From the NCBI GenBank assembly GCA_013298185.1, contig JAAFJQ010000002.1:9591-73590 (forward strand): a stretch of DNA of 64,000 nucleotides, given 5' to 3'. Both the position numbers and the translations under genes were made by a program. Position 1 is the first letter of the stretch; every line of letters starts with the position of its first letter. Positions 1 through 47,179 of this stretch are shown here, piece by piece. The DNA is from Deinococcales bacterium. GTDB taxonomy: Bacteria > Deinococcota > Deinococci > Deinococcales > JAAFIG01. The notes under the pieces were generated by a model. It did no database searches. It was not told the DNA's origin and worked only from the letters and a program-made list of their open reading frames with translations.

Positions 1-2276
1 TAGAACTCGAGGGGCTGGCACGAGATGGGATTAAACGGCGTTACAAGCCCGAACAGCACAAAGCTGCCCTAAAACTGATGAGCCATGAACTCGAGGTGAT
101 TGAAGAACTGGGCTTGGCTGAGTATTTCTTGGTGGTGCATGAAGTCATCGAAGCAGCTCGAGCTTTGAAGATTCGCACGGCAGGGCGGGGGAGTGCTGCC
201 TCGAGCATTGTGGTTTATGCGTTGGGGATTGCCCACGCTGACCCGCTTAAGTTTAGGTTGAGATTTGAGCGGTTCTTAAACACTGGGCGTTTTGTGAACA
301 AGCGCGAAGCTCCAGACATTGATGTGGATGTGCAATCAGAACGCCGCCAAGAACTGATTGAATGGGTGACGCAAAGGTTTGCTGGTCAGACGGCAATGGC
401 TGCCAACATCAACACGTATGGACTTCGCGGCGCAACCAGAGACGCGGCGCGGCTGCTGGGCTGGACACATGACCAAGCTGGGGAGTTGACTCGAGTGCTG
501 CCGTATTCGGGCAGACCACGGAACATCAGGAGGCATACAAACGAACTCGAGAGAGTGGCAGGACAAAGTGTGCTGCTCGAGGTGCTGCTGAGCCTTGTGG
601 AGCGCCTGGACGATTGCCCGAGGGATTTAGGACTTCACTCAGGGGGAATGTTGTTGGCTCGAGATTCGATTCTCAGTCACAGTGCAGTCAAACGCAGTGC
701 CAATGGAACGCTTCAAACATTCCTGGATAAACGCACCGCCGAACACGCAGGGCTGGTCAAACTTGACCTTTTGGGCTTGCTGACTTTGGATGTGCTACAA
801 ACAGCCGTTGAATTACTCGAGGCTCAAGGGATGATCTTAGACCTCGAGAACGTGGATTTAGACGATGCACAGATTTATGCTGGCTTAAAAGATGGCAAAG
901 TGATTGGGCTGTTTCAAGTGGAATCACCAGCCCAACAAGCCCTGATTGCCCAACTGCAACCCGAGAATTTTCTTGACCTTGTGGCGCAAGTTGCACTGAT
1001 TCGCCCCGGACCAATCCAAGCCCAATCGGTGCGCCCGTACATCAAACGGCGCAAAGGACTCGAGAAAGTGACATACCCACACTCGAGCCTCGAGCCAGTC
1101 TTGCGCCAGACATATGGGGTGATGGTTTTTCAAGACCAAGCGATTGAGACAGCTCAGACCATTTGTGGGATGAGCATTGACGAAGCCGATAAGTTTAGAA
1201 AATTGGTATCCAAGGCTCGAGACCGTGAGGACATGGAATCTATGCGGGAGGTGTTTACAACTCGAGCGAAAGAAACCCATGCGGACATTGACGATGAAAA
1301 AGCCAATGCTGTTTTCGAGATGGTAGCAGGGTTCGCAGGTTATGGTTTTCCACTTTCGCATTCGGTGGCGTTCGCAACCACAGCCGCGCACACGGCGTAT
1401 TTGAAGGCGCTCTATCCTGCTGCTTTTTTATGTGCGGTCTTGGAGCATGAACCCGGTATGTATCCGAGGCTAACGATTACCCAAGAAGCGCGGCGCATGG
1501 GTATCCCTGTGCTGCCCGTGAACCTCGAGGAAAGCAGTCATCGGTATAGGCTCGAGAAGGTGGATGAAGCTCTTGGTATCAGGCTGGCATTCTCTGCCGT
1601 GGATGGCATCAGTGAAACAGCAGCTCGAGGGTTGGTGCTGGGCAAACCATACTCGAGTTTGGAGGATTTGGTACGACGATCCAAGCTGGCTCGAGATGCG
1701 CTTATGAATCTGGCTCGGAGTGACGCGCTGGCAACGTTTGGAACACGGCGCGATGTGCTTTGGGAGTTGGGGGTACTGGGCAACCGATTGGGTTTGGTTC
1801 ACTCGAGTCCAGAAATGCTTTTACCGATTCATACCGTGACAGCCGAGGACATGGCTTGGCTCGAGGAATTAACAATCGAGGAAGCGCTCGAGTGGGACTT
1901 AGAGGTGACACGCACCAGTGGGGTTCACCCACTTGCACCGTTGCGCCCGATGCTCGAGGTCATGGGAGTGCGGCGCATGGACAAGATTTTTGATGGGCAG
2001 CGCTGCACCGTGGCAGGGTTAGTGGTGGCTCGGCAGCGACCAGAGACCGCGAAAGGGGTGGTTTTCTTGCTGCTCGAGGATGAAAGTGGGCATGTCCAAG
2101 CGATTGTGAAGAGTGACACTTGGCTCGAGCAGCGCCAGATTTTGCGCTCGAGGGCGTTGTTGGTAACTGGACGAGTGCAAAGGTTACGGGGATGGAAAAC
2201 AATCATGCTCGAGGAAGTGGAAGTTCTCGAGACAGCACAGGTGAGGGAAGCTGAGATGGCGTACTTTGTGCGGTGA
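1..2276 (+). CDS. dnaE2: Error-prone DNA polymerase III alpha-type subunit (DnaE2/ImuC-like); 3' ~757 codons, 5' end off the left edge
   Basis: The frame is open from base 3 (ELEGLARDGIKRRYKPEQHKAALKL precedes the first Met at 78). PolIII-alpha motifs: GRGSAASSIVVYALGI, GLVKLDLLGLLTLDVL, ALIRPGP, VFQDQAIE, GYGFPLSHS. The C-terminal OB fold RCTVAGLVVARQRPETAKGVVFLLLEDESGHVQAIV is as in DnaE2. Confidence 0.85.
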   Translation, partial: ELEGLARDGIKRRYKPEQHKAALKLMSHELEVIEELGLAEYFLVVHEVIEAARALKIRTAGRGSAASSIVVYALGIAHADPLKFRLRFERFLNTGRFVNKREAPDIDVDVQSERRQELIEWVTQRFAGQTAMAANINTYGLRGATRDAARLLGWTHDQAGELTRVLPYSGRPRNIRRHTNELERVAGQSVLLEVLLSLVERLDDCPRDLGLHSGGMLLARDSILSHSAVKRSANGTLQTFLDKRTAEHAGLVKLDLLGLLTLDVLQTAVELLEAQGMILDLENVDLDDAQIYAGLKDGKVIGLFQVESPAQQALIAQLQPENFLDLVAQVALIRPGPIQAQSVRPYIKRRKGLEKVTYPHSSLEPVLRQTYGVMVFQDQAIETAQTICGMSIDEADKFRKLVSKARDREDMESMREVFTTRAKETHADIDDEKANAVFEMVAGFAGYGFPLSHSVAFATTAAHTAYLKALYPAAFLCAVLEHEPGMYPRLTITQEARRMGIPVLPVNLEESSHRYRLEKVDEALGIRLAFSAVDGISETAARGLVLGKPYSSLEDLVRRSKLARDALMNLARSDALATFGTRRDVLWELGVLGNRLGLVHSSPEMLLPIHTVTAEDMAWLEELTIEEALEWDLEVTRTSGVHPLAPLRPMLEVMGVRRMDKIFDGQRCTVAGLVVARQRPETAKGVVFLLLEDESGHVQAIVKSDTWLEQRQILRSRALLVTGRVQRLRGWKTIMLEEVEVLETAQVREAEMAYFVR

Positions 2277-2449
2277 ATATCTGCTCGAGACTCGGCTTTT
2301 AACCGCGAAGCGGATACAAGGTTTTTGATGCGAAGCATGGAGCGAAGCGACGAACTGGGTTAGGGTTGCCTCAAGCCTTGGCTTGTTAAGCATATACAAA
2401 TGGTTTTCGTAAAGATGCGTTAGAATCGAAAGCAAACAGGAGTTGACCA

Positions 2450-3991
2450 ATGACAAGCGAAGCACAACGCGCCGCACTACAAGCCCAAATCTGGAAAATA
2501 GCCAATGATGTACGCGGTTCTGTGGACGGATGGGATTTTAAGCAATTCGTACTGGGTAGCCTTTTTTATCGTTTCATCAGCGAGAATTTCACACGGTACA
2601 TTGAAGGCGGCGACGACAGCATCAAATACGCCGAGATGCCCGATGAGCTGATGACCGCAGCCATCAAAGATGACGCAATTAAAACCAAAGGGTATTTTAT
2701 TTACCCAAGCCAACTTTTTGTGAACATTGCCGCCAAAGCCAAAGACAACGAGAACCTGAACACCGAACTCAAAGAAATTTTTACCGCCATTGAAAGCAGC
2801 GCCAATGGCTACCCTTCTCAAGACGACATCAAAGGGTTATTTGCTGATTTTGACACCACCAGCAACCGCCTTGGCAACACCGTCAAAGACAAAAACAGCC
2901 GCTTGACTGCGGTTCTAAAAGGCGTAGCTGGTCTGAGTTTTGGTGATTTTGAAGACAACCAGATTGACCTCTTTGGTGATGCCTACGAGTTCCTGATTTC
3001 CAATTATGCGGCTAACGCGGGCAAATCTGGTGGTGAGTTTTTCACACCGCAACATGTTTCTAAACTGATTGCACAACTGGCAATGCACAACCAAACAACG
3101 GTCAATAAAATCTATGACCCTGCGGCTGGATCAGGTTCTTTGCTGCTCCAAGCCAAAAAACACTTTGATGCCCATGTGATTGAAGAAGGCTTCTACGGGC
3201 AGGAAATCAACCACACCACTTATAACCTAGCCCGAATGAACATGTTTTTGCATAACATCAATTACGACAAATTCAGCCTAGCCCTTGGTAACACGCTGCT
3301 AGACCCGCATTTTGGTGATGAAAAACCCTTCGATGCAATCGTTTCAAACCCGCCGTATTCGGTCAATTGGATTGGCAGCGACGACCCAACCCTAATCAAC
3401 GATGATCGCTTTGCCCCTGCTGGTGTGTTAGCCCCAAAATCCAAAGCTGATTTTGCTTTTGTCCTCCATGCCCTAAGTTACCTTTCTGCCAAAGGACGAG
3501 CCGCGATTGTTTGCTTTCCCGGTATTTTTTACCGAGGCGGCACAGAACAAAAAATAAGGCAGTATTTGATAGACAACAATTTTGTTGAAACCGTGATTTC
3601 ATTAGCCCCAAACTTGTTTTATGGCACAACCATTTCAGTATGTATCTTGGTGTTATCCAAGCACAAGCCAGACACCAAAACCCAGTTTATAGATGCCAGT
3701 GGACTTTTCAAAAAAGAAACCAATAACAACACCCTGACCGATGACCACATAACCCAGATTATGCGGATTTTTGAGAGCAAAACCGATATTGAACACTTAG
3801 CCAAATCGGTTGACCTCGAGAAGATAACCGCCAATGATTACAACCTTTCGGTGAGTTCGTATGTCCAAGCCAAGGAGAAAAGGGAAGTGGTGAACATAAC
3901 CACCCTGAACAAAGACCTAGAAACCACTGTAGCCAACATAGACCGCCTTCGCACTGAAATAGATGCGATTATTGCGGAGATAGAAGCATGA
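2450..3991 (+). CDS. hsdM: Type I restriction-modification system, N6-adenine DNA methyltransferase subunit (type IC, EcoR124-like)
   Basis: 513 aa. HsdM N-terminal motif [35 protein letters not shown], AdoMet motif [13 protein letters not shown], catalytic NPPY ([10 protein letters not shown]). ATGA overlap with hsdS at 3988-3991. Confidence 0.95.
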
Positions 3992-5169
3992 GCCAGCCAA
4001 CCTTTATGGAGCGACTGCTCGAGGGTGTGACGGTGGAATGGAAGCCGTTGGGAAGCGTAGCTGATTATGAACAACCGACAGAGTATCTCGTTAAGACAAC
4101 TAACTATAGCGACGACTTTGAAACTCCAGTTTTAACCGCAGGAAAAACTTTCATCCTTGGTTACACTGATGAAACAGAGGGTATTTATAAAGCTTCACTA
4201 AAACCTGTAATTATTTTTGATGACTTTACAACAGCCAACAAATGGGTAGATTTTGACTTTAAAGCCAAGTCTTCAGCAATGAAAATGATTACATCTATTG
4301 ATGAAACCAAAGTTTCATTAAGATATGTCTACCATTGGTTAAACACATTGCCCACAGAATTAATTGATGGAGACCATAAACGTCAATGGATTAGCAATTT
4401 TGCTAATAAAAAAATTCCCATCCCGCCCCTCGAGGTTCAAGCGGAAATTGTTCGTATATTGGATACATTCACCGAGCTTACAGCCGAGCTTACAGCCGAG
4501 CTTACAGCCCGCAAAAAGCAATACACCTACTACCGCGACCAGCTTTTAACCTTTGAAGAAGGGCATGCAGAATGGAAAACATTGGAAGAAGTCGCAATAT
4601 ACCGCCGAGGCTCTTTTCCCCAGCCATACGGCGAAGATAAATGGTACGACGGTGAGGGCGCAATGCCGTTCGTGCAAGTTGTTGATGTTGGTGCAAATAT
4701 GCGACTTGTAGAAATTACAAAAAACAAAATATCAAAGTTGGCACAGCCCAAAAGTGTTTTTGTAAAAGAGGGAACAGTCATTGTAACTCTACAGGGCAGC
4801 ATTGGGCGTGTTGCTATCACTCAATATGATTGTTTTGTGGATAGAACTTTGGCAATATTTGAAAAATTCCAGATAGAAATTGATACCAAGTATTTTGCTT
4901 ATCAACTTCAAGCAAAATTCGGAATTGAAAAAGAGAATGCACGCGGTAGCACAATAAAAACAATCACAAAAGAAGAATTTTCCAAGTTTAAAATCCCCAT
5001 CCCGCCCCTCGAGACTCAAGCCCGAATCGTTGCTATCCTCGATAAATTCGATGCCCTAACCAATTCCATCACCGAGGGCTTACCTCGAGAAATTGCCTTG
5101 CGTCAACAGCAGTACGAGTATTACCGTGAATTACTTCTTAGCTTCCCTAAACCAGAGGCAGGGGTCTGA
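3988..5169 (+). CDS. hsdS: Type I R-M specificity subunit
   Basis: 393 aa. Two target-recognition halves, each followed by the conserved helix KIPIPPLE(V/T)QA(E/R)IV(R/A)ILD. Central ELTA x3 repeat; C-terminal [11 protein letters not shown]. Confidence 0.9.
4474..4509 (+). repeat. 3 x 12-bp perfect tandem repeat GAGCTTACAGCC (ELTA x3) in the central conserved region of hsdS
   Basis: Read directly: units at 4474-4485, 4486-4497 and 4498-4509. Confidence 0.95.
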
Positions 5170-5173
5170 ACCC

Positions 5174-5680
5174 ATGAGTAACGCGCCGCGTTTTACGATT
5201 ACTTCCGATATTCTTAATTTGGTGGCTGGTATCAGCGAACAAGTCGGTAGGCTTAACGCCAGTGCTTTAAGTCTGTCGCCGCAGTTACGCAAACAAAATC
5301 GGATTAAAACCATTACGGGAACACTGGCAATTGAAGGGAACACACTGACCGAAGAACAAGTCACGGCGATTCTCGAGGGTCGGCGGGTCTTGGGGAGTGT
5401 GCAGGAAAATGCCCCTGTAAATGCCCCTGTAAATGCCCCTGTAAATGTGGTGGGGTTGAAAACACCAGATGCCATTTTGCTTTTGATTCAAGATAACCCT
5501 CGGCTTACTCGGCAACAAATAGCCAGTACCTTACAAAAAGATGTGCGAACCATTGGACGTGTCATAACCCAGTTACAACAGGCAGGCAACTTAAAAAGAA
5601 TTGGTTCTGATAAGGCTGGTCATTGGGAAGTCAACCCAACGTGGCAACTATCGGCAAAAAGGATGCAGACTCATGAATGA
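5174..5680 (+). CDS. Fic-family N-terminal domain + C-terminal winged-HTH protein lacking the Fic catalytic core
   Basis: Start ATG 5174 (MSNAPRF). Fic_N-like region with inhibitory-helix-type motif [15 protein letters not shown]-terminal wHTH-like [34 protein letters not shown]. No HxFx(D/E)GNGR motif anywhere; an APVN x3 repeat sits where the core would be. Stop overlaps the hsdR start. Confidence 0.6.
5408..5447 (+). repeat. ~3.3 x 12-bp tandem repeat AATGCCCCTGTA (NAPV repeats) inside the Fic-like gene
   Basis: Read directly: units at 5408-5419, 5420-5431 and 5432-5443, plus a partial unit. Confidence 0.9.
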
Positions 5681-8600
5681 ATTTAAACCAATCGCAGAAG
5701 CCAACACGTTTATTGTTCTCGAGAAATACACCAAAATCGAGCAGCTAAACGGCGGATACCAAAGCGAAGCCGATTTAGAACGTGAATTGATTCAAGACTT
5801 ACAGAATCAGGGTTATGAGTACCTGCCCACGCTGACCAGCCCTGAAACCATGCTGGCGAATGTGCGGGTGCAACTAGAAACCCTGAACAACATGCGCTTT
5901 AGTGATGCTGAGTGGTTGCGTTTTATCGAAGAGTATTTGGATAAACCCAGCGATGGCATGACCGAAAAAGCCAAGAAAATTCATGATAATTACATTCACG
6001 ATTTTGTGTTTGATGATGGGCATATTCAAAACATTTACCTTGTAGACAAAAAGAATACGGCTCGGAATAAACTACAAGTGATTCGGCAATTTGAACAAAA
6101 AGGCACACAAGCCAATCGGTACGATGTTACGATTCTGGTCAACGGCTTACCGTTGGTTCAGGTTGAACTGAAAAAACGTGGCGTGGCAATACGTGAAGCT
6201 TTTAATCAAGTGCATCGGTACAGCAAAGAGAGCTTTAACTCGAGTAATTCGCTTTATAAGTACATTCAGATTTTTGTGATTTCCAATGGCACGGACAGCC
6301 GTTATTTTGCCAATACCACCAAGCGCGATAAGAACAGCTTTGATTTCACAATGAATTGGGCAAGAGCCGATAACACCTTGATTAAAGACCTAAAGGATTT
6401 TACTGCAACTTTTTTTGCAAAAAACACCTTGCTGCAAGTCCTGCTGACCTATTCGGTGTTTGATATTGGTGAAACTTTGCTGGTGATGCGTCCATATCAG
6501 ATTGCTGCGACTGAACGAATGTTATGGAAGATTAACAGTTCGTATCAGGCTAAAAAATGGAGCAGCACCGAAGGCGGTGGCTTTATTTGGCACACGACTG
6601 GTTCGGGTAAAACCCTAACGAGTTTCAAGGCGGCGCGGTTAGCCACTGAACTCGAGTTTATTGAAAAAGTCTTTTTTGTGGTGGATCGCAAAGACCTTGA
6701 TTACCAAACGATAAAAGAGTACCAGCGTTTTTCACCTGATAGTGTCAACGGTTCGGACAGCACGGCGGGCTTAAAAAGCAATATCGAAAAAGATGACAAT
6801 AAAATCATTGTCACCACGATTCAAAAGCTGAATAACTTACTAAAAACCGAGGCGAATTTAGCGATTTACGATAAGCAAGTGGTGTTTATTTTTGATGAAG
6901 CCCACCGCTCGCAATTTGGTGAAGCTCAAAAAAACTTAGCAAAAAAATTCAAAAAGTTTTATCAGTTTGGTTTTACTGGCACACCGATTTTTCCTCAGAA
7001 TGCCTTGGGAGCTGACACCACCGCCAGTGTCTTTGGTCGTGAGTTGCATTCTTATGTGATTACTGATGCGATTCGGGATGAAAAAGTTTTGAAGTTTAAG
7101 GTTGATTATAACGATGTACGTCCTAAGTTTAAGGCGATTGAATCCGAGCAAGACGAGCAGAAACTCTCGGCAGCCGAGAACAAAGAAGCCTTGCTGCACC
7201 CTGAGCGAATCAAAGAGATTGCGCGGTATGTACTCAGTAATTTCAGGCAGAAAACCCGCCGGTTACAAGCTGGCGGTAAGGGCTTTAACGCCATGTTTGC
7301 AGTCAGCAGCATAGACGCTGCCAAACTGTACTACGAGGCTTTGCAGAACCTACAAAAAGACAGTGACAAACCCCTGAAAATCGCCACGATTTATTCTTTT
7401 GCCGCCAACGAAGAACAAGGCGCGATTGGTGAAATTCTCGATGAGGGTTTTGAACCCTCGGCGCTCGAGAGCAGCGCCAAAGAGTTTTTAAGCGCTGCAA
7501 TTGCTGATTACAACGCCATCTTCAAAACGAATTTTAGTGTTGACAGCAAAGAGTTCCAGAATTATTACCGCGACCTTGCCAAGCGAGTCAAAGACCAAGA
7601 GATTGATTTGCTGATTGTGGTTGGGATGTTCCTGACTGGTTTTGACGCGCCGACGCTGAACACCTTATTTGTGGATAAAAACCTGCGGTATCACGGTTTA
7701 ATTCAGGCTTTTTCGCGCACCAATCGGATTTTTGGTGCGACCAAAACCTTTGGGAATATTGTGCTGTTTCGGAATTTAGAACAAGCCACAAAAGATGCAC
7801 TGACGCTTTTTGGCGATAAGAACACCAAAAACATTGTGCTGGAAAAAAGTTACAAAGAGTACATGGAGGGTTTTACCGACATCTCCACTGGTGAGGCACG
7901 GCGCGGTTATTTGGATGTGGTGCAGGAATTACAGGAGCGCTTTCCTAACCCTGACGAGATCATCACTGAAAAGGACAAAAAAGACTTTGCCAAGCTGTTT
8001 GGTGAATACCTGCGGGTTGAAAATATTTTGCAAAACTACGATGAGTTTGCTGGTCTAAAAGCCCTGCAAGACGTGGATTTGAGCGACCCTGCGGCGGTAG
8101 AAGAATTCAAAACCAAGCACTTTTTAGACGATGACGAACTCGAGCGGATGCAGCAAGTGAAAATACCAAAAGAGCGCACGATTCAAGATTACCGTTCGAC
8201 TTACAACGACATTAGGGACTGGTTGCGCCGCGAGCAAACTGGCAAAGAAAAAGCCGCCTCGAGTGTAGACTGGGATGATGTTACTTTTGAAGTGGATTTG
8301 CTCAAATCCCAAGAGATCAACCTAGACTATATTCTTGAACTGATCTTTGAACACAAGAAAAAACTCAAAGATAAAACTGCTCTGGTCGAAGAAGCCAGCC
8401 GCTTGGTACGTGCCAGCGTCGGCAACCGCGCCAAAGAGAGCTTATTGGTTGACTTTATCAACCGAACTGACCTTGATACAATCCAAGACAAAGCCAGCAT
8501 CATTGAAGCATTTTTTACTTTTGCACAAGGTGAACAGCAACGCGAAGCACAAGACTTAATTGCATCTGAGAACCTGAATATTGAAGCCGCCAAACGATAC

Positions 8601-8771
8601 ATCGTCGCATCCTTAAAACGAGAATACGCCAGTGACAGCGGTACGGAACTGAGTGAGTTGCTACCCAAAATGAGTCCGTTGAATCCGCAGTACCTAACCA
8701 AAAAGCAAAGTGTTTTCGGAAAAATAGCGGCTTTTGTTGAAAAGTTTAAGGGAGTTGGTGGGCAGATTTAA
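5673..8771 (+). CDS. hsdR: Type I R-M restriction (helicase-nuclease) subunit
   Basis: 1032 aa from ATG 5673 (MNEFKPIAE; the track start at 5601 is an upstream extension). SF2 motifs [10 protein letters not shown] (I), [10 protein letters not shown] (II, DEAH), FGFTGTP (III), QAFSRTNR (VI). Confidence 0.93.
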
Positions 8772-8917
8772 GTGCTGTGTTTAGCAAGCTCGAGCAGGCA
8801 AAAAAAACACGCCACTTCTGGGCGCTGATAGAAACAAGCATACGGCATTATTCTGTATTCGTCAAGTTTATGCACTTGGATTCGTGTATAACAGTGTTTT
8901 TACTGATTTCCAACCAC

Positions 8918-9031
8918 CTATTTCTTAACTTCTTCAAACACTGGCACATCCCCAAGCAGTGGCTCGAGACCCGCGTAGCGCCGTTGCCAATGCTCGAGCC
9001 GAGCATGTAAATAGCCAAAGCCTTTAGACGG
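8918..9031 (-). repeat. HNH-gene 3' tail fragment, copy A (HARLEHWQRRYAGLEPLLGDVPVFEEVKK-stop) plus a 26-nt junction block
   Basis: The minus strand translates to the C-terminus of the HNH protein at 12004-12279. No start codon, and an in-frame stop lies just upstream. ~95% identical to copy B at 10722-10834, including the non-HNH 26-mer TGTAAATAGCCAAAGCCTTTAGACGG (9006-9031). Confidence 0.85.
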
Positions 9032-9060
9032 GCTTTAACCGACTTTTTTATTGAGTTATT

Positions 9061-9095
9061 TAACTGTAAGCATTTTTGTGATATGCTTACAGTTA
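9061..9095. promoter_or_regulatory. 13-bp perfect inverted repeat (TAACTGTAAGCAT-N9-ATGCTTACAGTTA) at the abiEi 5' end; candidate AbiEi autoregulatory operator
   Basis: Arms 9061-9073 and 9083-9095, read directly. Overlaps the first ATG (9083); a second ATG at 9095 is the alternative start. Confidence 0.5.
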
Positions 9096-9709
9096 TGAAC
9101 CAAGCATCTCACCTCGAGCAATTACTCGAGCAGAACCACGGGTTAATCGAACGCCATGCACTTAACAAAGCTGGTATTCAACCACGCACCATAACCCAAT
9201 GGCTCGAGACTGGACGACTTGAGCGGCTGCACCGTGGGGTTTATCGGGCTACAGATTCATTTATTCAGCATTCAGATTTACTCGAGGCATGGTTGGTTGC
9301 GCCTTACAGTGTAATTTGTTTGATTTCAGCTTTACAATTCCATGAGTTAGGCACGGCTCTGGCTGGACGGGTGTACTTAGCCGTGAATCGAACCCATCGC
9401 GCTCCTAAGCTCGAGTTTCCACCGCTTGAGGTGCATCATTTTCCAACGGCTATTTTTAAGGCTGGGATTGAACAGCATTTAATCGGTGGGCGGCTTGTGC
9501 CGATTTATAGCCCCGAAAAAACGATTGCTGATTTACTGCGGTATGAACGGTTTACTGGGCGAGATGTGTTCTTAGAAGCCTTACAGTATTACTTGAAGCG
9601 CAAGTCTCGAAATATAAGTAAGTTGCTCGAGATGGCACGGGTTTGTAAAGTAGAAAGTAAAATCCAGATTTATGTTGAAGCCCTTGTGAATAACAGCTTG
9701 GATTACTAA
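9083..9709 (+). CDS. abiEi: AbiEi-family type IV toxin-antitoxin antitoxin (start may be 9095)
   Basis: N-terminal wHTH pattern AGIQPRTITQWLETGRLERLHRGVYR. C-terminal AbiEi-type domain ICLISALQFHELG...IYSPEKTIADLLRY. Followed by abiEii. Confidence 0.8.
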   Translation: MLTVMNQASHLEQLLEQNHGLIERHALNKAGIQPRTITQWLETGRLERLHRGVYRATDSFIQHSDLLEAWLVAPYSVICLISALQFHELGTALAGRVYLAVNRTHRAPKLEFPPLEVHHFPTAIFKAGIEQHLIGGRLVPIYSPEKTIADLLRYERFTGRDVFLEALQYYLKRKSRNISKLLEMARVCKVESKIQIYVEALVNNSLDY

Positions 9710-9797
9710 GTATCTCCCACTTTCGTTTTAGAATTTCCAAAAAGCGTCAATTCTGTCACTTCAGCGTGAGATACGTTGCCGTTACTCCTTTTAGTCG

Positions 9798-9830
9798 GAA
9801 ATGTTTTAGCAAAAAACTCTAAAACATTTC
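9798..9830. repeat. Perfect 12-bp-stem hairpin GAAATGTTTTAG-N9-CTAAAACATTTC between abiEi and abiEii
   Basis: Read directly. The arms closely resemble the hairpin at 26762-26794. Confidence 0.8.
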
Positions 9831-9845
9831 ACAGGTGTACTTAAA

Positions 9846-10694
9846 ATGAAAGACCATATTAAGAACAAAGCCCAATCGGTACTTGACCGTCTGCGTAACC
9901 TTGCCAGACTCGAGCAACGCGAATTCCAAGCAATGCTGCTTTTATACGCCCAAGAACGTTTTTTAGCTCGGATGTCAAGCAGTCCGTACAAACAGCACTT
10001 TGCCCTTAAAGGTGGGATGTTCTTATACAGCCGTTACCAACAAAGCGCTCGTCCGACCCAAGACATGGATTTTGCAGGACGAAATACCAGTAACCAAATC
10101 GAGGATATTCTCGAGCAAATGCGTGAAATTCTAGGCTTAGACTTAGATGATGGGGTGGTTTTTGACACAAGCAATTTAAGCGGCTCGAGGATTGCTGAGG
10201 AGAGCAAATACGCTGGGGTACGCATCAAAACCGAGGCACGAATTGTCCAAGCCAAATTACCCATCATTTTAGATGTTGGTTTTGGTGATGTGATTAGTCC
10301 TGCGCCGGTATTACAAAGCTATCCGAACTTATTGAACAACTCACCTTTTGAGCTTTTCACCATTACCCTCGAGACCCTGATTGCCGAGAAATTCCAAGCG
10401 ATGGTGATGCTTGGGGAGCGCAATACTCGAATAAAAGATTTCTACGACCTGTACCGCATTGCCAGTACCGAAACCCTAAATCCAGAAAGCCTTCGCACAG
10501 CCCTTGAACGCACTTTCAAGCAACGCGAAACGCGTTTAGAAGCAGCTCAGGCTTTTCTAGCCCAAGGTTACGTGAACAGCACCAACCGACAACAGCTATG
10601 GGAAGGGTATTTACGACGTTCCAAACTTGAAGCACCAACAGATTTTAACGAGATTATGCAGGGTATTCGTGCCATGATAGACAAGGTGCTTTAA
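9846..10694 (+). CDS. abiEii: AbiEii/AbiGii-family nucleotidyltransferase toxin
   Basis: 282 aa. Family-typical N-terminus IKNKAQSVLDRLRNLA...LLLYAQERFLARMSSSPYKQHFALKGGMFL...RPTQDMDFAG. Confidence 0.85.
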   Translation: MKDHIKNKAQSVLDRLRNLARLEQREFQAMLLLYAQERFLARMSSSPYKQHFALKGGMFLYSRYQQSARPTQDMDFAGRNTSNQIEDILEQMREILGLDLDDGVVFDTSNLSGSRIAEESKYAGVRIKTEARIVQAKLPIILDVGFGDVISPAPVLQSYPNLLNNSPFELFTITLETLIAEKFQAMVMLGERNTRIKDFYDLYRIASTETLNPESLRTALERTFKQRETRLEAAQAFLAQGYVNSTNRQQLWEGYLRRSKLEAPTDFNEIMQGIRAMIDKVL

Positions 10695-10721
10695 GTTATC
10701 TTCAATTCGCGTTATAAGCCT

Positions 10722-10834
10722 TTATTTTTTGACTTCCTCGAACACTGGCACATCCCCAAGCAGTGGCTCGAGACCCGCGTAGCGCCGTTGCCAATGCTCG
10801 AGCCAGCTTGTAAATAGCCAAAGCCTTTAGACGG
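10722..10834 (-). repeat. HNH-gene 3' tail fragment, copy B, plus the same 26-nt junction block
   Basis: The minus strand reads ...LEHWQRRYAGLEPLLGDVPVFEEVKK-stop. The junction 26-mer lies at 10809-10834 and ends one base before the RES gene stop codon (10836-10838). Confidence 0.85.
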
Positions 10835-10835
10835 A

Positions 10836-11420
10836 TTACGACAAAATTTGAATGGTTGGCAGGACATTCTCAGGGTCAAATAAGGTCAGTGTGCAATTAT
10901 GCTGCGTGGCAACACTTGGGAAAATAATTAGATTTTTACCGTTATCTGCTCGAGCGCTTTCGGCAATGAACGCAGCAAAAAGTTGGTGTTCGATGTTCAT
11001 TCGCCCTAGAGCCTGAGTGGGTGATTCAAGACCACGGTTTTGCATTCGGATAAAATTCCCACTGAGTTCTTGTGTGTTTGTTCCAAGAGCTGCTTGAACA
11101 GTTGTACTGGTTAAATCCAAGGCGCGGATGTTGGTGCTTTCTAAGGTCAGGATGCTCGAGGGTCTGAAACGCCCCGCCAGTCTGGGATCGGTGTGCGCGT
11201 AATGTTGCATTTCGGCGATCATGGTTTCAATTTCAAGGCTGGTGTATAACGCCTCGAGCTTCTTTGGGTTAAATCGCCCACCTGCAAGAGCGCTTCCCAA
11301 CGCATTGAGTGGATTTTCGATGTACTTGAGGTTGGTACTGCGAAACGAGAGGTAATCTTGGGGTTGGGTTTGCTTCAACAATTTTTTAAGGGTACTTAAA
11401 AGTTGTTTTTCTGAGTTCAT
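10836..11420 (-). CDS. RES-domain toxin (NAD+-targeting family)
   Basis: 194 aa. GGRFNP motif, ALYTSLEIETMIAEM. 4-nt overlap with the upstream Xre/DUF2384 antitoxin gene. Confidence 0.8.
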   Translation of the reverse strand: MNSEKQLLSTLKKLLKQTQPQDYLSFRSTNLKYIENPLNALGSALAGGRFNPKKLEALYTSLEIETMIAEMQHYAHTDPRLAGRFRPSSILTLESTNIRALDLTSTTVQAALGTNTQELSGNFIRMQNRGLESPTQALGRMNIEHQLFAAFIAESARADNGKNLIIFPSVATQHNCTLTLFDPENVLPTIQILS

Positions 11421-11824
11421 GCGGTTTGTCCTCGCTCGAACATCTCGAGCAAGTCATTTACACTGGCTAAATCGCCTTCTAGGATGCAATCCATTGGGGT
11501 TTGATAATCGAGGTCTGGGTGCGGTGCGCGTAGCCAAATTCGGGTGTACTCGAGTGAGTTGTCTAGTAACGCTTTGAGGCGTTGAGCGATGATGGAGAGT
11601 TGTAAAAACTTTTTTTGGTAATTGTTTGAATTTGGTGTTTTGCGTAAGGCACTGTCTGAGACGCTTAAATACCGTGCCATTTCGGTCACGGTTAAGCCGA
11701 GTGCTGTGGCAAGTTTAAGACCATCGAAACGCCCTGTTTCAGGTTCTTGAGCTTCAAAAATGACGTGTGCTGTGAGGATGTTTGAATTGATGGGTGACAT
11801 AATTCTCTCTTTGTTTCTATACAT
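11417..11824 (-). CDS. Xre/MbcA/ParS-type antitoxin with C-terminal DUF2384 toxin-binding domain (start may be 11800)
   Basis: HTH region LGLTVTEMARYLSVSDSALRK. DUF2384-type C-terminus WLRAPHPDLDYQTPMDCILEGDLASVNDLL. Confidence 0.8.
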   Translation of the reverse strand: MYRNKERIMSPINSNILTAHVIFEAQEPETGRFDGLKLATALGLTVTEMARYLSVSDSALRKTPNSNNYQKKFLQLSIIAQRLKALLDNSLEYTRIWLRAPHPDLDYQTPMDCILEGDLASVNDLLEMFERGQTA

Positions 11825-12003
11825 AGTATTTAGGGTTTAAAAATTCATTCGTATTTTTTTAAGGTAAGACATTTTCAGTGTTTTTTTAGACTCCTTTGCA
11901 AGATAGCTGGCGAATGCTCGAGCTGAACAAAGTTTAGTCTTTGGTTTTGTTTCTGTCAAGTTTTAGTTGTTTTTTTGTTGTGAAAAGGTTTATTGAAAGA
12001 TAT

Positions 12004-12279
12004 TCACTTTCTGACTTCTTCAAACTCTGGTAAGTCCCCCAATAGTGGCTCGAGACCCGCATAACGCCGTTGCCAATGCTCGAGCCGAGCGTGTTCGGAT
12101 TGACTTGGCATGATGACCAGATTCTCGGGGGAATTATCGAGCTTATCGCCATTCTTGTGATGCACCACTTCTCGAGGGTCAAGAGAGCGCCCTAGCTTTT
12201 GTTCGGCTGCTAAGCGATGGGCATAACGGGGGTTCTGACCGCGTTCTGGACTATGGACTCGAGTTCGTTTGTATCTCAT
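12004..12279 (-). CDS. Small HNH endonuclease (intact family member)
   Basis: 91 aa. HNH core VVHHKNGDKLDNSPENLVIM...H. GGAGG RBS 7 nt upstream. Related fragments at 8918-9031, 10722-10834 and 45425-45616. Confidence 0.85.
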   Translation of the reverse strand: MRYKRTRVHSPERGQNPRYAHRLAAEQKLGRSLDPREVVHHKNGDKLDNSPENLVIMPSQSEHARLEHWQRRYAGLEPLLGDLPEFEEVRK

Positions 12280-12340
12280 GATGATTCCTCCGAGATAAAC
12301 ACCAACGACGGCAAAATTGCAGCCACACTGACGGCTTGAT

Positions 12341-12979
12341 TCATGCGCTGACCATCGCTTCGAGGTATGGGGTGATGATGTTTTGCACTCGGCAGGCTCG
12401 AGCCATGTTCCAGAGTTGGTCTTGGGTGAAGCGTTTTTCAGTTAAGCATTGTTTCAGGGCTTCCAAGGCAACATCCAAACCGATTTGATGACGGAACTTA
12501 AAGCAATCAGCCACAGTACGGGCAGGGGAATAGATTTGCACTGATACACCGTCTATGTATACAGTCTCGAGACCCGTGTGGAAGTGTTTAGCATCAAAGT
12601 GATGAACTTTGACCCCGAGGGTCTGAGGATCACGGGTGCGGGTGGGTATGGCAACCCATGTTTCATAGGGCATTTGCGTGGTGATTTGGTGGTACTCGAG
12701 GGCTGAAATCAGGCAGATGGCAGCTTTAGGGATTTGTAAGGCAATTTCAGCGAGGCGTTGATGGGCGCTGGTGGGGATGTTGGGATTGAGGTACATTCCT
12801 CTGGCAAGTCGCTGTAGTCGACCTTGTTTGACCATACGACCAATGGCGGTGCGTGAGTAGCCTTGCTGCTCGAGGGTTTGGGTGTTGAGCAGTGGCGGTA
12901 AGTTGTTATCTGTTACAGTTTGCTTACTGTTATTCACAAGTATCAACATATTGTAACACAAAACTTTGTGGCGAAACAA
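12341..12979 (-). CDS. AbiEi-family antitoxin paralogue with no abiEii partner
   Basis: Same architecture as 9083-9709 (GRMVKQGRLQRLARGMY; ICLISALEYHQIT; IYSPARTVADCFKF). The downstream gene is the HNH endonuclease, not a nucleotidyltransferase. Confidence 0.75.
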   Translation of the reverse strand: MFRHKVLCYNMLILVNNSKQTVTDNNLPPLLNTQTLEQQGYSRTAIGRMVKQGRLQRLARGMYLNPNIPTSAHQRLAEIALQIPKAAICLISALEYHQITTQMPYETWVAIPTRTRDPQTLGVKVHHFDAKHFHTGLETVYIDGVSVQIYSPARTVADCFKFRHQIGLDVALEALKQCLTEKRFTQDQLWNMARACRVQNIITPYLEAMVSA

Positions 12980-21948: not shown

Positions 21949-23352
21949 GTGAGTGGTATGAATTTCACATCTTATGCGTTTTTATTTGGGTTCTTACCAC
22001 TCATGTTCTTGGCGTATTGCTGTTGTCCAAAACAATCGCGCTATTTGTTGTTGCTGACGGGTAATTGCGTATTTTACGGATTGCTCGACCCTCGAGCCTT
22101 GATGGTCTTATGGGCAGTGGTTGGGTTGAGCTTTGTGGCAGGCAAAATCATTTTTGTTATCAACCACAAACGGGTTTGGTTGGTGGGTAGTGTTGTCTTG
22201 CTTTTGGGTATTTTAGGGTTTTTCAAATACGCCTACTTTGGACTCGAGATTGCCAGTGGTTTATTTGGCACGACTGAACTTTTGCATGGCTGGGAAATAC
22301 TGCTACCGATTGGCTTGAGTTTTTATGTGTTCAATGGACTGGCGTATGTGGCAGATATTTACAGCCAAAAAGCTGAACCAGAACCAAATTTTTTACGATT
22401 TGCCAGTGGGATGACCTTTTTTGCATCTTTGCTGAATGGTCCATTGTTGCTGTACTCGAGTATTGGTTCGCAGTTGCAGACTCCTGAAGTGAGCGGTCAT
22501 CAAATCCAAGATGGTATCCGGCGGTTTATTCTGGGTTTTTGTAAGAAAGTGATCATTGCAGATGCCTTTGCTCCATTGGTGCGTGAATGTTTTGCTGTTG
22601 AGGCAAGCAGTTTGGACATTTGGTTTGGTGCTTTTGTCTACAGCTTGCAGCTTTACTTTGACTTTAGTGGCTACAGCGATATGGCAATTGGATTGGCATT
22701 GATTTTTGGGATTCATTTGCCTGAAAATTTTAATCAACCTTATGCGGCTAAAAGCATCACTGAATTCTGGCAACGTTGGCACATGAGTTTATCTGCTTTC
22801 TTAAAGCAGTATGTTTATATCGGACTGGGTGGGAATCGTTGCGGTGAGTTACGAACTTATTTGCATTTGTTGTTGACGATGTTGATTGGTGGTTTATGGC
22901 ATGGTGCGAACTGGACGTTTGTCTTTTGGGGCGCTTGGAATGGGGGTTTGTTGCTGCTCGAGCGCTGGCTTGGTGTGAAGCTGAAACGCCCTCCACCTCC
23001 GGTTTGGTACGGCATTACAAAAATGTTTTTACTGGTCATGCTTGGGCGGTTGTTTTTTATTGCACCTGACCTGACCACAGCCTTTTCTTATTTTGCGGCT
23101 TTAACGGGGGAACACGGCTGGTGGCTTGGTTCAAATGTTGTGCTGTTGCTGACCCCCGAGCGATTACTGCTGCTGGTTGTGGCGGTGCTGTTGAGTTTTC
23201 CATGGTTGACATGGTTGAGTCCAAACCGTGTTGTACCACTTGGTTTGTTGGCAAACAGGGCTTATCTAGCATTGTTGTTGCCACTGTTTTGGTTAGCAAT
23301 TGGCTTGGCGGCGGCTCGGCAGGCTGTCCCGTTCTTGTATTACCGATTTTGA
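21949..23352 (+). CDS. algI: MBOAT-family polysaccharide O-acetyltransferase (AlgI-like); start may be ATG 21958
   Basis: Polytopic. FWQRWHMSLSAFLKQYVYIGLGGNR and GGLWHGANW (conserved His) are typical of AlgI/DltB. Confidence 0.85.
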   Translation: MSGMNFTSYAFLFGFLPLMFLAYCCCPKQSRYLLLLTGNCVFYGLLDPRALMVLWAVVGLSFVAGKIIFVINHKRVWLVGSVVLLLGILGFFKYAYFGLEIASGLFGTTELLHGWEILLPIGLSFYVFNGLAYVADIYSQKAEPEPNFLRFASGMTFFASLLNGPLLLYSSIGSQLQTPEVSGHQIQDGIRRFILGFCKKVIIADAFAPLVRECFAVEASSLDIWFGAFVYSLQLYFDFSGYSDMAIGLALIFGIHLPENFNQPYAAKSITEFWQRWHMSLSAFLKQYVYIGLGGNRCGELRTYLHLLLTMLIGGLWHGANWTFVFWGAWNGGLLLLERWLGVKLKRPPPPVWYGITKMFLLVMLGRLFFIAPDLTTAFSYFAALTGEHGWWLGSNVVLLLTPERLLLLVVAVLLSFPWLTWLSPNRVVPLGLLANRAYLALLLPLFWLAIGLAAARQAVPFLYYRF

Positions 23353-23359
23353 GGTGAAG

Positions 23360-24334: not shown

Positions 24335-24441
24335 AGAAGAAGATTGGCTATCGTTACCGTAAAGAAGAAGATTGGCTATCGTTACCGTAAAGAAGAAGAT
24401 TGGCTATCGTTACCGTAAAGAAGAAGATTAGCTATCGTGCC
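24311..24441 (+). repeat. 28-bp tandem repeat (GTAAAGAAGAAGATTGGCTATCGTTACC), ~4 copies plus an ancestral partial copy, spanning the algJ stop to the algF RBS
   Basis: Units at 24331-24358, 24359-24386 and 24387-24414 are perfect. 24415-24441 is degenerate. 24311-24330 (the gene's 3' end) resembles the unit's 3' part. Confidence 0.9.
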
Positions 24442-24457
24442 ACAAAGAGGAGGCAAC

Positions 24458-45154: not shown

Positions 45155-45232
45155 ACCCTCTCTCAGTGTACACCTCAGTATTCCAACAGAACGTGCTTTC
45201 TAGCATAGCCGCAACCTTAAAGGAGGTTGTGT

Positions 45233-45386: not shown

Positions 45387-45437
45387 AGCGGCGCAGATTC
45401 AGGCTTTGACCTCGAGATGCGCCGCTATTTTTGTTTT
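45387..45437 (+). terminator. Hairpin AGCGGCGCA-N22-TGCGCCGCT followed by ATTTTTGTTTTG
   Basis: Arms 45387-45395 and 45418-45426, then a T-rich run. Lies 32 nt after the peptide stop. Confidence 0.55.
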
Positions 45438-45616
45438 GTGCTGCACTTAAATGACGAGTTGATTTGAAAAAAATTGAGCTTATCGCCGTTTCTGTGATGC
45501 ACCACTTCTCGAGGCTCGAGGGAGCGCCCTAGTTTCTGCTCGGCGGCTAAGCGGTGGGCATAACGGGGGTTCTGACCGCGTTCTGGACTGTGGATCCGAG
45601 TTCGTTTGTACCTCAT
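45425..45616 (-). pseudogene. 5' fragment of an HNH endonuclease gene (first ~45 codons homologous to 12004-12279, then unrelated tail)
   Basis: MRYKRTRIHSPERGQNPRYAHRLAAEQKLGRSLEPREVVHHRNGDKL matches the intact copy. Homology ends after GDKL. Confidence 0.8.
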
Positions 45617-45619
45617 GAT

Positions 45620-45985
45620 TTACACCGTTTTGGAATGAATGAGCTGATGGTTTGGGATGGCATGTTGAAGGGATTGAATGGCTTGTGGGCTTAGGTGCTG
45701 GACACGTAAATAATCTTTGATGTTGGGGTCTGTTTTGATGTAACACTTGAGTTCTTCTTGTACTTCGGTAGGCAATTGAGCGCGAAACTCAAAACCCAAA
45801 TCAGTCAGCAGGAGTTCGCTGTAGTGGAGTACCTGAAATGCCCAGTCTGAGTCAAACCAGTACATCATGCAAGACGCACCCCCCGGTGAGTTTTTGGTGG
45901 GTGTTTTAGAAACCAAGTAAATGAAAGTTGGGTTTTGTTCCAACTGGTTTGATTCGTAGAATGCGCCCACTTGAGCTTGAAGCAT
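45620..45985 (-). CDS. Hypothetical 121-aa protein, tightly coupled (3-nt gap) to the HNH fragment
   Basis: ORF only; no recognised motif. Confidence 0.4.
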   Translation of the reverse strand: MLQAQVGAFYESNQLEQNPTFIYLVSKTPTKNSPGGASCMMYWFDSDWAFQVLHYSELLLTDLGFEFRAQLPTEVQEELKCYIKTDPNIKDYLRVQHLSPQAIQSLQHAIPNHQLIHSKTV

Positions 45986-45994
45986 GGTCTTATT

Positions 45995-46627
45995 CTACAA
46001 CCCTGCACTTTGTTTTGCTGCATTATTTGCTGGTGGTTTTGACATGACAGTCCGAACAAGGCTTTGTATTTGTACGGCGTTGACACCATTTTTGAGGCGC
46101 ACAAGTGGCAGCCTGACAGCTTCAAAAGCAGCGTCTTTGGTAGCATCTCGAGTACGTTGTTTTTCTAAAGTGTGGCTCCAGCCATCGAGTTCAATAATAA
46201 AAAGTGGTTGGTGGGTCTGGGCATTGACCACCAAGAAATCGAGGTGCATTCCTCGCAAACGATTCAGGGTTTGTAAACGTGCTGCACCTACGGGGTCAAT
46301 CACATCAAGCACCCGAACCTTTGGGAAGACTCGGTATTCGGTATCTGCAAGGGCTTGCTCGAGCAGCAAAAAGGCTTGGCTTTCTGCATTGGTGAAAAAC
46401 CGCGATCTGAGTTTGACCTCGAGCTGGCTGGTGGCTCGAGCTGGTGAATTGTAGGTTTGGGGTGTTGGGGTTTGCCTGTCTGGTTCGGCATACGAGTAAG
46501 AAGAATTCTCGAGTCGGCTTGACGGCTTTTTCTTTCTTGCCCGATAAACAAAAAAAGCAACCACGGCAGCCCAGAACAAGATGCCAAACCAATTTTTAAT
46601 GAGGTAGTCCATGCTCCAAACTAGCAC
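45995..46627 (-). CDS. Membrane-anchored DUF2726 (restriction-endonuclease-like fold) protein
   Basis: N-terminal TM WFGILFWAAVVAFFVY. FFTNAESQAFLLLEQAL...RVFPKVRVLDVI...HLDFLVV...IIELDGWSH...RD is typical of DUF2726. Confidence 0.65.
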   Translation of the reverse strand: MLVWSMDYLIKNWFGILFWAAVVAFFVYRARKKKPSSRLENSSYSYAEPDRQTPTPQTYNSPARATSQLEVKLRSRFFTNAESQAFLLLEQALADTEYRVFPKVRVLDVIDPVGAARLQTLNRLRGMHLDFLVVNAQTHQPLFIIELDGWSHTLEKQRTRDATKDAAFEAVRLPLVRLKNGVNAVQIQSLVRTVMSKPPANNAAKQSAGL

Positions 46628-46648: not shown

Positions 46649-47179
46649 TTATCGCCACAAGCCGCGTTTTGCTGCTCGAGCTTCGCGGCTGGCGGCTAGG
46701 ATTTGCTCGGCGTATCGGACATTTGGCGGGATGGTGAGTGGATCGGCATAGCCTGCTCGAGCAATTTCAACACTCGAGTTCTTGCCATTCACAAGCAAGT
46801 AAGCAAGGTTGCGCTGGTAACGGTCTGTACGTTGTACATCCCATTCAATCGTGACGGTTTTGTTCTCGAGCAAGGATTTGGTGAATGCCTTAGCGCGTTT
46901 ACCTTCAGCCACAATGCTGTCTAAGCTCTGTCCTGTCCGAGCTGCAATTGATTTGGCGCGAGCGTTGCGGCGCGATTCTGGGGTGTCTATGCCGATGAGC
47001 CTAAAGTTCTCTTTGAAGCCCTCGAGATGCACGGTGTCGCCGTCTATGATTCGGGTGACTTTGGCGATTTGGACTTGCTGCGCGTTTGCGGGTTGGAGTG
47101 CTGTCACGAGCTGGTACATGGCTGCACCGATGAGCAATGGAACAGCGAAAATAAGCTGTATTTGCAAACGATTCTTCAT
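46649..47179 (-). CDS. Exported staphylococcal-nuclease (thermonuclease/SNase) family protein
   Basis: Signal/anchor MKNRLQIQLIFAVPLLIGAAMY. IIDGDTVHL...RLIGIDTPE; RYQRNLAYL. Confidence 0.8.
   Translation of the reverse strand: MKNRLQIQLIFAVPLLIGAAMYQLVTALQPANAQQVQIAKVTRIIDGDTVHLEGFKENFRLIGIDTPESRRNARAKSIAARTGQSLDSIVAEGKRAKAFTKSLLENKTVTIEWDVQRTDRYQRNLAYLLVNGKNSSVEIARAGYADPLTIPPNVRYAEQILAASREARAAKRGLWR

Follow-up and report, generated by a model that had tools for sequence, protein, structure and literature searches.

Displaced ends of a small HNH endonuclease gene mark a candidate hotspot for toxin–antitoxin cassettes in a Deinococcales genome

Defence and toxin–antitoxin (TA) genes cluster in hotspots, and the route by which small, recombinase-less cassettes enter them is often unclear. 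How such cassettes might come to lie side by side is a question raised by a stretch of 64,000 nucleotides (nt) from a Deinococcales bacterium (GenBank assembly GCA_013298185.1, contig JAAFJQ010000002.1, positions 9,591 to 73,590 of the forward strand), which we call the window and number from its first letter. Read along the minus strand, an intact gene for a small HNH endonuclease is followed by a RES/Xre cassette, a copy of the 3′ tail of the HNH gene (tail B), an abiE cassette, a second tail copy (tail A) and the end of a type I restriction–modification (R-M) operon. An earlier note on this DNA had proposed tandem accretion, in which successive islands integrate into the 3′ end of the HNH gene and each brings a replacement end. 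We compared the window with related loci (numbered with the prefix L), all of which come from metagenomes or draft assemblies and some of which are short contigs. On balance we think it probable that cassettes accrete here at a hotspot anchored on the small HNH gene, by recombination in the gene's last third.

The two repeat units that part the cassettes lie at 8918-9031 (unit A) and 10722-10834 (unit B). They align with a single 1-nt gap, and each consists, on the minus strand, of a 26-mer, TGTAAATAGCCAAAGCCTTTAGACGG, followed by the last ~87 nt of the 91-amino-acid HNH_3 gene. The 26-mers are found at 9006..9031 (26-mer A, minus strand) and 10809..10834 (26-mer B, minus strand), giving two copies in the window and none in 100 shuffles. 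Tail A (8918..9005, minus strand) corresponds to HNH nt ~188-276 plus the stop codon, translates in frame as HARLEHWQRRYAGLEPLLGDVPVFEEVKK with its stop at 8920..8918, and is contiguous with an ancestral spacer described below. In tail B (10722..10808, minus strand) the peptide agrees with that of tail A from LEHW on; upstream of this point the frame is broken by a 1-nt deletion at the junction. The 3′ end of the intact gene (12004..12279, minus strand; Pfam HNH_3, 1.1e-14) is 82-83% identical to both tails. These measurements agree with the earlier note, which had described two ~113-bp, ~95% identical segments sharing a 26-nt block (94.7% over 113 nt; the 26-mer occurs exactly twice) and had put a single base between copy B and the RES stop codon (10836-10838, against an end of 26-mer B at 10834); its order and identities for the R-M, abiE, RES-Xre and HNH genes were likewise confirmed by Pfam and PADLOC. 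Junctions specific to units A and B are present in independent short-read assemblies of other samples, in which contigs break inside the units. The RES-to-unit-B junction recurs in L001, L020, L021 and L022; in L004 the abiE cassette is joined at its two ends as in the window, so an assembly artefact is unlikely.

Related strains differ in which cassettes they carry at this locus, the kind of presence and absence to which the earlier note had looked. Four of them (L005-L008) are empty: a staphylococcal-nuclease-like (SNase) gene, a small open reading frame (ORF), HNH, a spacer of ~100 nt and a convergent dnaE follow one another, as expected of an unoccupied site. Their HNH gene and spacer match window 9008..8788 (tail A plus flank) and their dnaE matches window 2361..3; the type I R-M operon is not at this position in these genomes. 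Tail A and the spacer together form a block homologous to L006:7304-7546 and L010:4939-5182. Two other loci are filled. L014 has HNH, an HTH_17/PIN TA cassette, 18 nt, an HNH tail (2171-2253; 91% identical to its own gene) and the spacer, and L024 has SNase, a small ORF (orfX), an intact HNH gene, 27 nt, the abiE cassette of the window in the same inverted orientation, a block of ~77 nt and an HNH tail. The arrangement in L010-L012 is HNH, abiEi, abiEii, a second, frameshifted HNH, the spacer and a type I R-M operon; that in L009 is SNase, abiEi, abiEii and HNH; and the slot of the window holds abiE and RES/Xre. In three separate genomes (the window, L014 and L024), a displaced HNH end, comprising the last ~80-87 nt, lies distal to the cargo, so that a direct repeat of the HNH 3′ end flanks an insert next to an intact HNH gene. 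The region from HNH to the spacer is therefore a hypervariable slot between conserved SNase-(small ORF)-HNH on one side and dnaE on the other. In three contigs from the Joint Genome Institute (L017-L019), HNH is followed by proteins of 216 and 511 amino acids without a Pfam family, possibly an uncharacterised defence pair in the slot.

The spacer itself (8788..8876, minus strand), which is non-coding, follows the last HNH gene or tail in every relative and is 90-94% identical in L005-L008, L010-L012 and L014, which makes it better conserved than the neighbouring genes (copies at L006:7458-7546, L010:5093-5182 and L014:2259-2409). A pattern scan found a promoter-like TTGACG-17-TATGCT at 8865..8837 and, ~12 nt later, a terminator-like hairpin followed by T8 (8825..8809); the L014 copy has a 38-nt insertion in the hairpin loop. 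Conservation stops exactly at CTCGAGC in four genomes, beyond which the sequences are unrelated, and a type I R-M operon comes after the spacer in both the window and L010. The spacer may encode a small RNA or act as a boundary element.

The way in which the tails have diverged suggests what they once were. Synonymous and nonsynonymous codon differences number 5:0 between tails A and B, 9:0 between tail A and the L014 tail, 9:0 between the L024 tail and the L024 HNH gene, 12:0 between tail B and the L024 HNH gene, and 5:1 between the L014 tail and the L014 HNH gene. Because the differences are almost all synonymous, the tails are displaced ends of once-functional genes that diverged while they were translated. 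The pattern fits recent displacement or a return to service upon loss of a cassette. Constraint at the DNA level was also considered: identity at synonymous codons is 0.69-0.74 at codons 56-70 and 0.47-0.66 elsewhere, a slight rise that is not decisive.

Recombination has also left traces within the HNH genes themselves. The intact gene of the window is a mosaic, its 5′ part 90% identical to L014 and its 3′ part unique, at 78-85% to all others; against L014, identity is 90.3% over nt 1-195 and 77.8% over nt 196-276 (Fisher p=0.011). L006 and L024 differ in the same sense (91.8% and 82.7%; Fisher p=0.03), and the two HNH copies of L010 in the opposite sense, with 73.8% over nt 1-195 and 95.1% over nt 196-276 (Fisher p=2e-5). 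The alleles are thus chimeric around nt ~196, as expected of replaced 3′ ends. At a finer scale, L001 and L002 are near-identical to the window (~99.8% over 2.2 kb), and eight of the 12 differences fall within HNH nt 51-150 (window 12130-12229), all of them synonymous. This is a gene-conversion patch, and recombination inside HNH is ongoing. The conversion patch and the L010 copies (95% 3′ vs. 74% 5′) uphold the earlier suggestion that this gene family is a recombination hotspot.

Two stretches of homology to L024 allow the history of the window to be reconstructed. The orfX gene and the 5′ part of HNH from L024 match window 45998..45473, and its HNH tail, abiE cassette and ~77-nt block match window 10802..9013, the homology running unbroken from inside tail B. 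It follows from these matches that the resident HNH gene is split. Its first 141 nt lie beside orfX and SNase at 45.6 kb, as a 5′ fragment (45476..45616, minus strand; 89% identical to HNH nt 1-141), and tail B occupies its 3′-end position as in L024, 27 nt from the abiEii stop. The two halves are separated by ~34.7 kb that hold a 32-kb exopolysaccharide and cyclic di-GMP (c-di-GMP) block, an abiEi-HNH module and RES/Xre. The fragment, which the earlier note had correctly reported at 45425-45616 with a different breakpoint, belongs to an ORF that runs from HNH into unrelated sequence; the same truncated ORF is found in another sample (P0010). A small signal-peptide-like, Gly-rich ORF of ~40 amino acids (45227-45355, plus strand) and, after it, a strong hairpin lie directly against the fragment where it is truncated, and L024 has a different small Gly-rich, secreted-type ORF after its truncated tail (~3130-3258, reverse strand).

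The intact HNH gene, which had been taken for the integration target, is on this reconstruction not the resident one and arrived with an abiEi-(abiEii deleted) module. Upstream of it lie an orphan abiEi (12341-12979; Pfam, PADLOC AbiEi) and an abiEii remnant of ~60 nt (12280-12340), together spanning 12280..12979 on the minus strand. The remnant keeps ~20 nt of the start and ~25 nt of the end of abiEii, with ~800 nt lost relative to L009 and L010. In both of these loci the order is abiEi-abiEii-HNH and abiEii overlaps HNH by 4 nt, which suggests that HNH is co-transcribed with abiE.

The same comparison changes the meaning of the 26-mer. Removing ~51 nt from the ~77-nt block beside the L024 abiE cassette yields the window 26-mer, whose first 19 nt are abiE flank, and L021 carries a population variant of 26-mer B, reading TGGCTGTTTTTACAAGCTGG, that is intermediate in this deletion series. 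The 26-mer is accordingly shared as a shortened piece of abiE flank from L024-type sequence, 26-mer A being the copy beside the abiE cassette; it is not an attachment (att) arm common to two islands, as the earlier note had it. This makes unit B a recombinational copy or hybrid: the 26-mer and the proximal tail were probably copied from unit-A-type sequence, and the distal tail with its downstream sequence is probably the resident HNH end. The idea of accretion at the HNH 3′ end is therefore broadly right: it keeps the displaced tails, the empty and filled relatives and the mosaic ends on its side, and loses unit B as an independent scar.

The cassettes themselves are small and self-contained. 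The abiE cassette (9083..10694, plus strand, convergent with the tails) pairs an AbiEi regulator (9083-9709) with an adjacent AbiEii nucleotidyltransferase (9846-10694), recognised by Pfam (AbiEi_4 and AbiEii, 7e-43) and PADLOC (AbiEi 1e-57, AbiEii 7e-87), and has an inverted-repeat operator upstream of abiEi. It is 90-92% identical at the nucleotide level to the L024 cassette, with the same 27-nt gap between the abiEii and HNH stops. The RES/Xre cassette (10836..11986, minus strand) is a type II TA pair by Pfam (RES, 10836-11420, 1.7e-15; Xre_MbcA_ParS_C, gene 11417-11824, 2e-8) with a 4-nt gene overlap and a promoter-like site at 11959..11931; NCBIfam subfamily models match it only below their cut-offs. 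Its edges are tight, the cassette beginning ~18 nt beyond the stop of HNH and closing with the stop codon of RES, and a homologous cassette lies beside recA in L023, without HNH or the 26-mer, with homology extending over window 11986..10842. A distant-mode search of a plasmid collection with 8772-12979 returned only short AbiEii matches, on rhizobial plasmids.

One further property of the sequence bears on how the joints were made. The window contains 327 copies of the palindrome CTCGAG where 7.4 would be expected (44-fold), spread over both genes and spacers; examples lie at 8789, 8963, 8993, 10767, 10797, 12049 and 12079. The abundance puts microhomology on offer roughly every 200 nt. Its density per kb is 12.7 in dnaE, 7-13 in the core flanks, 5-6 in the TA cassettes, 3.8 in the 32-kb block and 1.9 in the R-M operon, the lowest value in the window, and GC content is 0.52-0.54 in the core flanks and 0.44 in the R-M operon; this gradient in GC and palindrome density fits the reconstruction of the slot. 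Three tails begin on the CTCGAG at HNH nt 196-201, preceded by unrelated sequences (AAG|CTCGAG in L014, CTGG|CTCGAG in L024 and GCTGG|CTCGAG in window B). In an automated test, eight of 42 clusters of homology end points lay within 2 nt of a CTCGAG against 2.6 expected (P ~0.003), a result that we treat as a lead only, since it is biased by the tendency of BLAST alignments to stop on conserved words. The related contigs L006, L014, L023 and L024 are CTCGAG-rich as well. No paper on an iterated CTCGAG palindrome was found in the literature searched and, to our knowledge, the role of the HIP1 iterated palindrome in cyanobacteria is still an open question.

If integration at the HNH gene were of the classical kind, a recombinase or its sites might be expected. 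The earlier note had likened the locus to islands at tRNA genes, a comparison that implies an integrase, and had itself seen none locally. Pfam and NCBIfam searches of the long ORFs agree that no recombinase is encoded between 1 and 58 kb, with 10 listed ORFs of 85-210 amino acids left unscanned; no resolvase or serine recombinase (Ccr-type) domain occurs in any scanned ORF of the window; and no cassette encodes an integrase, their content being TA genes only, so that a tyrosine or serine integrase carried by the element beside its att site is missing. The 64-kb window has no tRNA or tmRNA gene, and Rfam gave no match in the whole window, nor in the locus at a permissive threshold. The tRNA-island analogy is not supported on this point: the sole tyrosine recombinase found in the window is an Xer-family protein at 58679-59668 (minus strand), 46 kb from the units, and nothing links it to them. 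It scores below the XerC/XerD cut-offs (231 bits vs. 335 for XerC) and reaches 95 bits with the integron-integrase model, whose cut-off is 265, and so is not classed as IntI. Its neighbours (56760-57395, 59849-60259 and 62210-63987) include a ParA-like ATPase, an excisionase-like HTH_17 protein, an unknown protein of 439 amino acids and parB-parA, and the locus may be a resolution system or what is left of an integrative element.

Candidate recombination sites at the units were also tried and set aside. Single-stranded DNA folds of both units on both strands showed no long hairpin (z-scores -1.1 to -2.0), which speaks against an attC-like fold. The best matches to the Escherichia coli dif consensus reach 16-18/28 and all lie elsewhere, the only site with the inner-arm motif being at 3749, inside hsdM. 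The 9-mer TAAAGGCTT was rejected as a recombination core and is a minor point only, the L024 copies matching at 6/9 positions. For a shared crossover core the signs are mixed: the tails of L014, L024 and window B all start at the nt-196 CTCGAG, but breakpoints elsewhere do not agree with this position and divergence among the repeats is 5-18%. Across the family, HNH breakpoints vary from nt ~141 in the 5′ fragment to nt ~188-196 in the tails and a whole-gene copy in L010.

We favour host homologous recombination, with a non-homologous outer joint made through microhomology at CTCGAG, rather than a dedicated integrase. DNA entering from a related strain would carry an HNH 3′ end followed by a cassette, and would recombine with the resident HNH gene within its last third. 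The gene would stay intact by way of the replacement end, and the resident end would be pushed distally as a tail. Tails and HNH ends would then offer ~85 nt of portable homology at which more DNA could be inserted, duplicated, deleted or exchanged; cassettes could hence stack, and a tail could go back into service as a functional 3′ end. A bolder variant, which we consider a long shot, makes the HNH nuclease and CTCGAG an integrase-free capture system, in which a nick or cut at the CTCGAG in the HNH 3′ end allows CTCGAG-bounded fragments to be joined in. Were it true, palindromes throughout the genome would be joints for recombination, with the HNH 3′ end in the role that attI plays in an integron.

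Several observations weigh against recombination by the host alone. The PIN (L014) and abiE (L024, window) cassettes have unrelated upstream flanks, and yet the tails behind them start within ~2 nt of each other. Three HNH ends share TAAAGGCTT and then diverge into different cargo; the exact 9-mer flanks the window abiE cassette on both sides, with five occurrences in the window vs. 0.72 expected; and the Xer-family tyrosine recombinase at 58679-59668 is, after all, present. Accretion as such is weakened by loci at which no tail was seen downstream of HNH within the sequence at hand (L009, L015 and L017-L019), and by a spacer variant common to the L014 tail and tail A, which may derive from one ancient tail and so reduce the number of independent events. 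Coincident tail starts and a boundary at TAAAGGCTT are also expected of a site-specific recombinase acting in trans, which therefore stays the main rival. The cassettes would in that case be miniature integrase-less integrative elements that use the HNH 3′ end as att site, the core lying close to the nt-196 CTCGAG or at TAAAGGCTT on the stop codon, comparable to Ccr-less elements of the pseudo-SCC type (staphylococcal cassette chromosome, SCC) or to integron cassettes. The tight edges of RES/Xre would suit such an element, and the Xer-like protein would be one candidate for the enzyme. We nevertheless judge this explanation unlikely: no recombinase is encoded within 46 kb of the units, and the one beyond is below the cut-offs, unlinked and set in a ParA/HTH_17 neighbourhood; the units offer neither a dif-like site nor an attC-like hairpin; the 9-mer repeat is degenerate in L024; breakpoints elsewhere differ (nt 141, whole-gene copies, the conversion patch at nt 51-150); and the repeats are diverged instead of forming an identical core plus arms.

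The HNH gene could also have a more active part, if its product or a CTCGAG-specific nuclease cut or nicked alleles at or close to this gene's 3′ end and a donor with cassettes then served for repair, so that the cassettes were co-converted in the manner of free-standing homing endonucleases of phages. The protein does match HNH endonuclease families of PHROG, from 1e-10 down to 6e-14, HNH_3 being the catalytic module of phage homing endonucleases; the DNA varies on both sides of the gene while the gene is kept, and short conversion tracts and mosaicism centre on it. This nuclease-driven homing is nonetheless doubtful for a protein of merely 91 amino acids with no recognisable DNA-binding domain, every relative found carrying HNH so that no HNH-less target allele was seen, and no relatives being found among viral contigs. 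Homologues are few altogether (12 clusters); the HNH profile matched no solved structure, a metagenome scan with the HNH alignment found one distant locus (L013), and a scan with the 20-nt tail core of a genome collection that does not include the source genome gave one match, unrelated (an Aestuariivirga metagenome-assembled genome, L003). A single local tandem duplication, or pseudogene debris with no recurrent gain of cassettes, would account for the derived 26-mer in both units and for the part of unit B that was copied from unit-A-type sequence. It is contradicted by the tails behind different cassettes in L014 and L024, by the existence of an unoccupied site and by synonymous tail differences and mosaic HNH 3′ ends, and we give it very little credence. 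Least believable of all is a generic dispersed repeat, similar to miniature inverted-repeat transposable elements or repetitive extragenic palindromes, that resembles the HNH 3′ end by chance: only two copies and the parent gene occur within 64 kb, the unit lacks terminal inverted repeats and a stable fold, its frame is preserved and its substitutions are synonymous, and at loci that bear a tail it always lies between cassette and spacer.

The remaining genes of the window define the edges of the slot and what has been added to them. On one side, the slot is bounded by the 3′ part of dnaE (78..2276, plus strand; Pfam DNA_pol3_alpha, finger, HHH_6 and OB), which is 80% identical at the nucleotide level to the dnaE of L006, there convergent with and adjacent to HNH and the spacer. 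Between spacer and dnaE in the window lies the type I R-M operon (2450..8771, plus strand; Pfam), made up of hsdM (2450-3991), hsdS (3988-5169), a DUF4172/helix–turn–helix (HTH) ORF (5093-5680) and hsdR (~5673-8771). The third of these, between hsdS and hsdR, has weak matches to DUF4172 (Fic N-terminal) and winged-HTH models and an (NAPV)x3 repeat; a full Fic protein is encoded near the corresponding operon of L010.

On the other side, the conserved anchor is the SNase-domain gene (46649..47179, minus strand; Pfam SNase), syntenic in L005-L012, L017, L018 and L024. Beside it stands orfX (45620..45985, minus strand), translationally coupled to the resident HNH gene, without a family match and with 85-91% amino-acid identity to the ORFs that precede the intact HNH genes of L024 and L015. 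A small upstream ORF as a conserved partner of HNH was considered and rejected, its conservation being confined to the window, L024 and L015. Relative to L024, a DUF2726 gene (45995-46627, minus strand) is inserted between SNase and orfX. The SNase protein matches a PADLOC candidate (SNc+LTD), and beyond it an AAA_14/DUF4143 ATPase (47251-48438, plus strand) matches the PADLOC candidate system PDC-S01 at 1e-78; the conserved SNase flank thus also looks defence-related.

The 32-kb block (12980-45475, GC 0.46) fills the interval from the HNH 5′ fragment to the abiEi-HNH module, where relatives have nothing; it may have come in as an island or through a rearrangement. It encodes AlgI, AlgJ-X and AlgF proteins like those of alginate O-acetylation, glycosyltransferases, GGDEF-EAL, HD-GYP and PAS/GAF proteins, a SpoIIE-STAS-anti-sigma set and histidine kinases, and domain scans of its ORFs found no mobility genes. 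A 28-nt tandem repeat, GAAGATTGGCTATCGTTACCGTAAAGAA, is present in 4-5 copies (24311-24450) at the junction of an AlgX-like ORF (23300-24334) and an AlgF-like ORF (24437-25072).

Among known systems, several resemble this locus in part. The islands of the SCC type depend on Ccr serine recombinases, and their integration-site repeats are short (~15-27 bp). The HNH locus has no linked recombinase, a repeat of ~85 nt that is a gene tail and 5-18% diverged, TA cassettes of 1.2-1.7 kb and breakpoints that are not uniform. The two are alike in insertion at the 3′ end of a conserved protein gene that stays intact and in tandem stacking with repeats of the target end, here tandem elements in the HNH 3′ end separated by repeats of that end. 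They are also alike in that some elements lack a recombinase: the composite SCC islands at rlmH (orfX) of staphylococci include recombinase-less pseudo-SCC elements (PMC3900703; bioRxiv 10.1101/336396). Islands at tRNA and tmRNA genes and tycheposon arrays grow by successive integrations at one site, which move earlier arrivals further out, and incomplete copies of the target remain behind (Hackl et al., bioRxiv 10.1101/2020.12.28.424599). The HNH-locus island likewise contains scattered pieces of its target gene; this target, however, encodes a protein, and the window has neither tRNA or tmRNA genes nor an element-encoded tyrosine recombinase.

The likeness to integrons, above all to chromosomal arrays rich in TA genes, lies in small single-operon cassettes, many of them TA, parted by a repeated element of ~60-140 nt, with the recombination function outside the cassette. 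Here, in contrast, there is no IntI or attC hairpin, the cassettes have their own promoters and lie in both orientations, and the repeat is a fragment of a gene. The pdif modules and Xer-dependent elements of Acinetobacter plasmids carry TA genes and other small modules in either orientation between short repeated sites and depend on host recombinases; the HNH units differ in having no dif-like 28-mer at or near them. Free-standing phage homing endonucleases provide a likeness of another kind, an HNH_3 gene between conserved genes with local mosaicism and conversion tracts, and differ in that the present gene is a minimal 91-amino-acid module, chromosomal, found in all relatives examined and without viral relatives.

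The locus provides a compact, readable series, from an empty site through one cassette to two, in which a displaced gene end marks each gain. If tails cycle between displaced and functional states, cassettes could be simply stacked and shuffled by host recombination alone, and junctions on a palindrome that is 44-fold over-represented offer a testable lead on the role of iterated palindromes. Measured against these systems, the HNH locus fails the defining tests of integrase-bearing islands, of integrons and of dif modules, and is unusual in combining a minimal HNH target, a long gene-derived repeat, tiny self-contained TA cassettes, no linked recombinase and junctions on a hyper-abundant palindrome. 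We regard it as an integrase-free variant of a known route by which bacterial genomes collect accessory genes.

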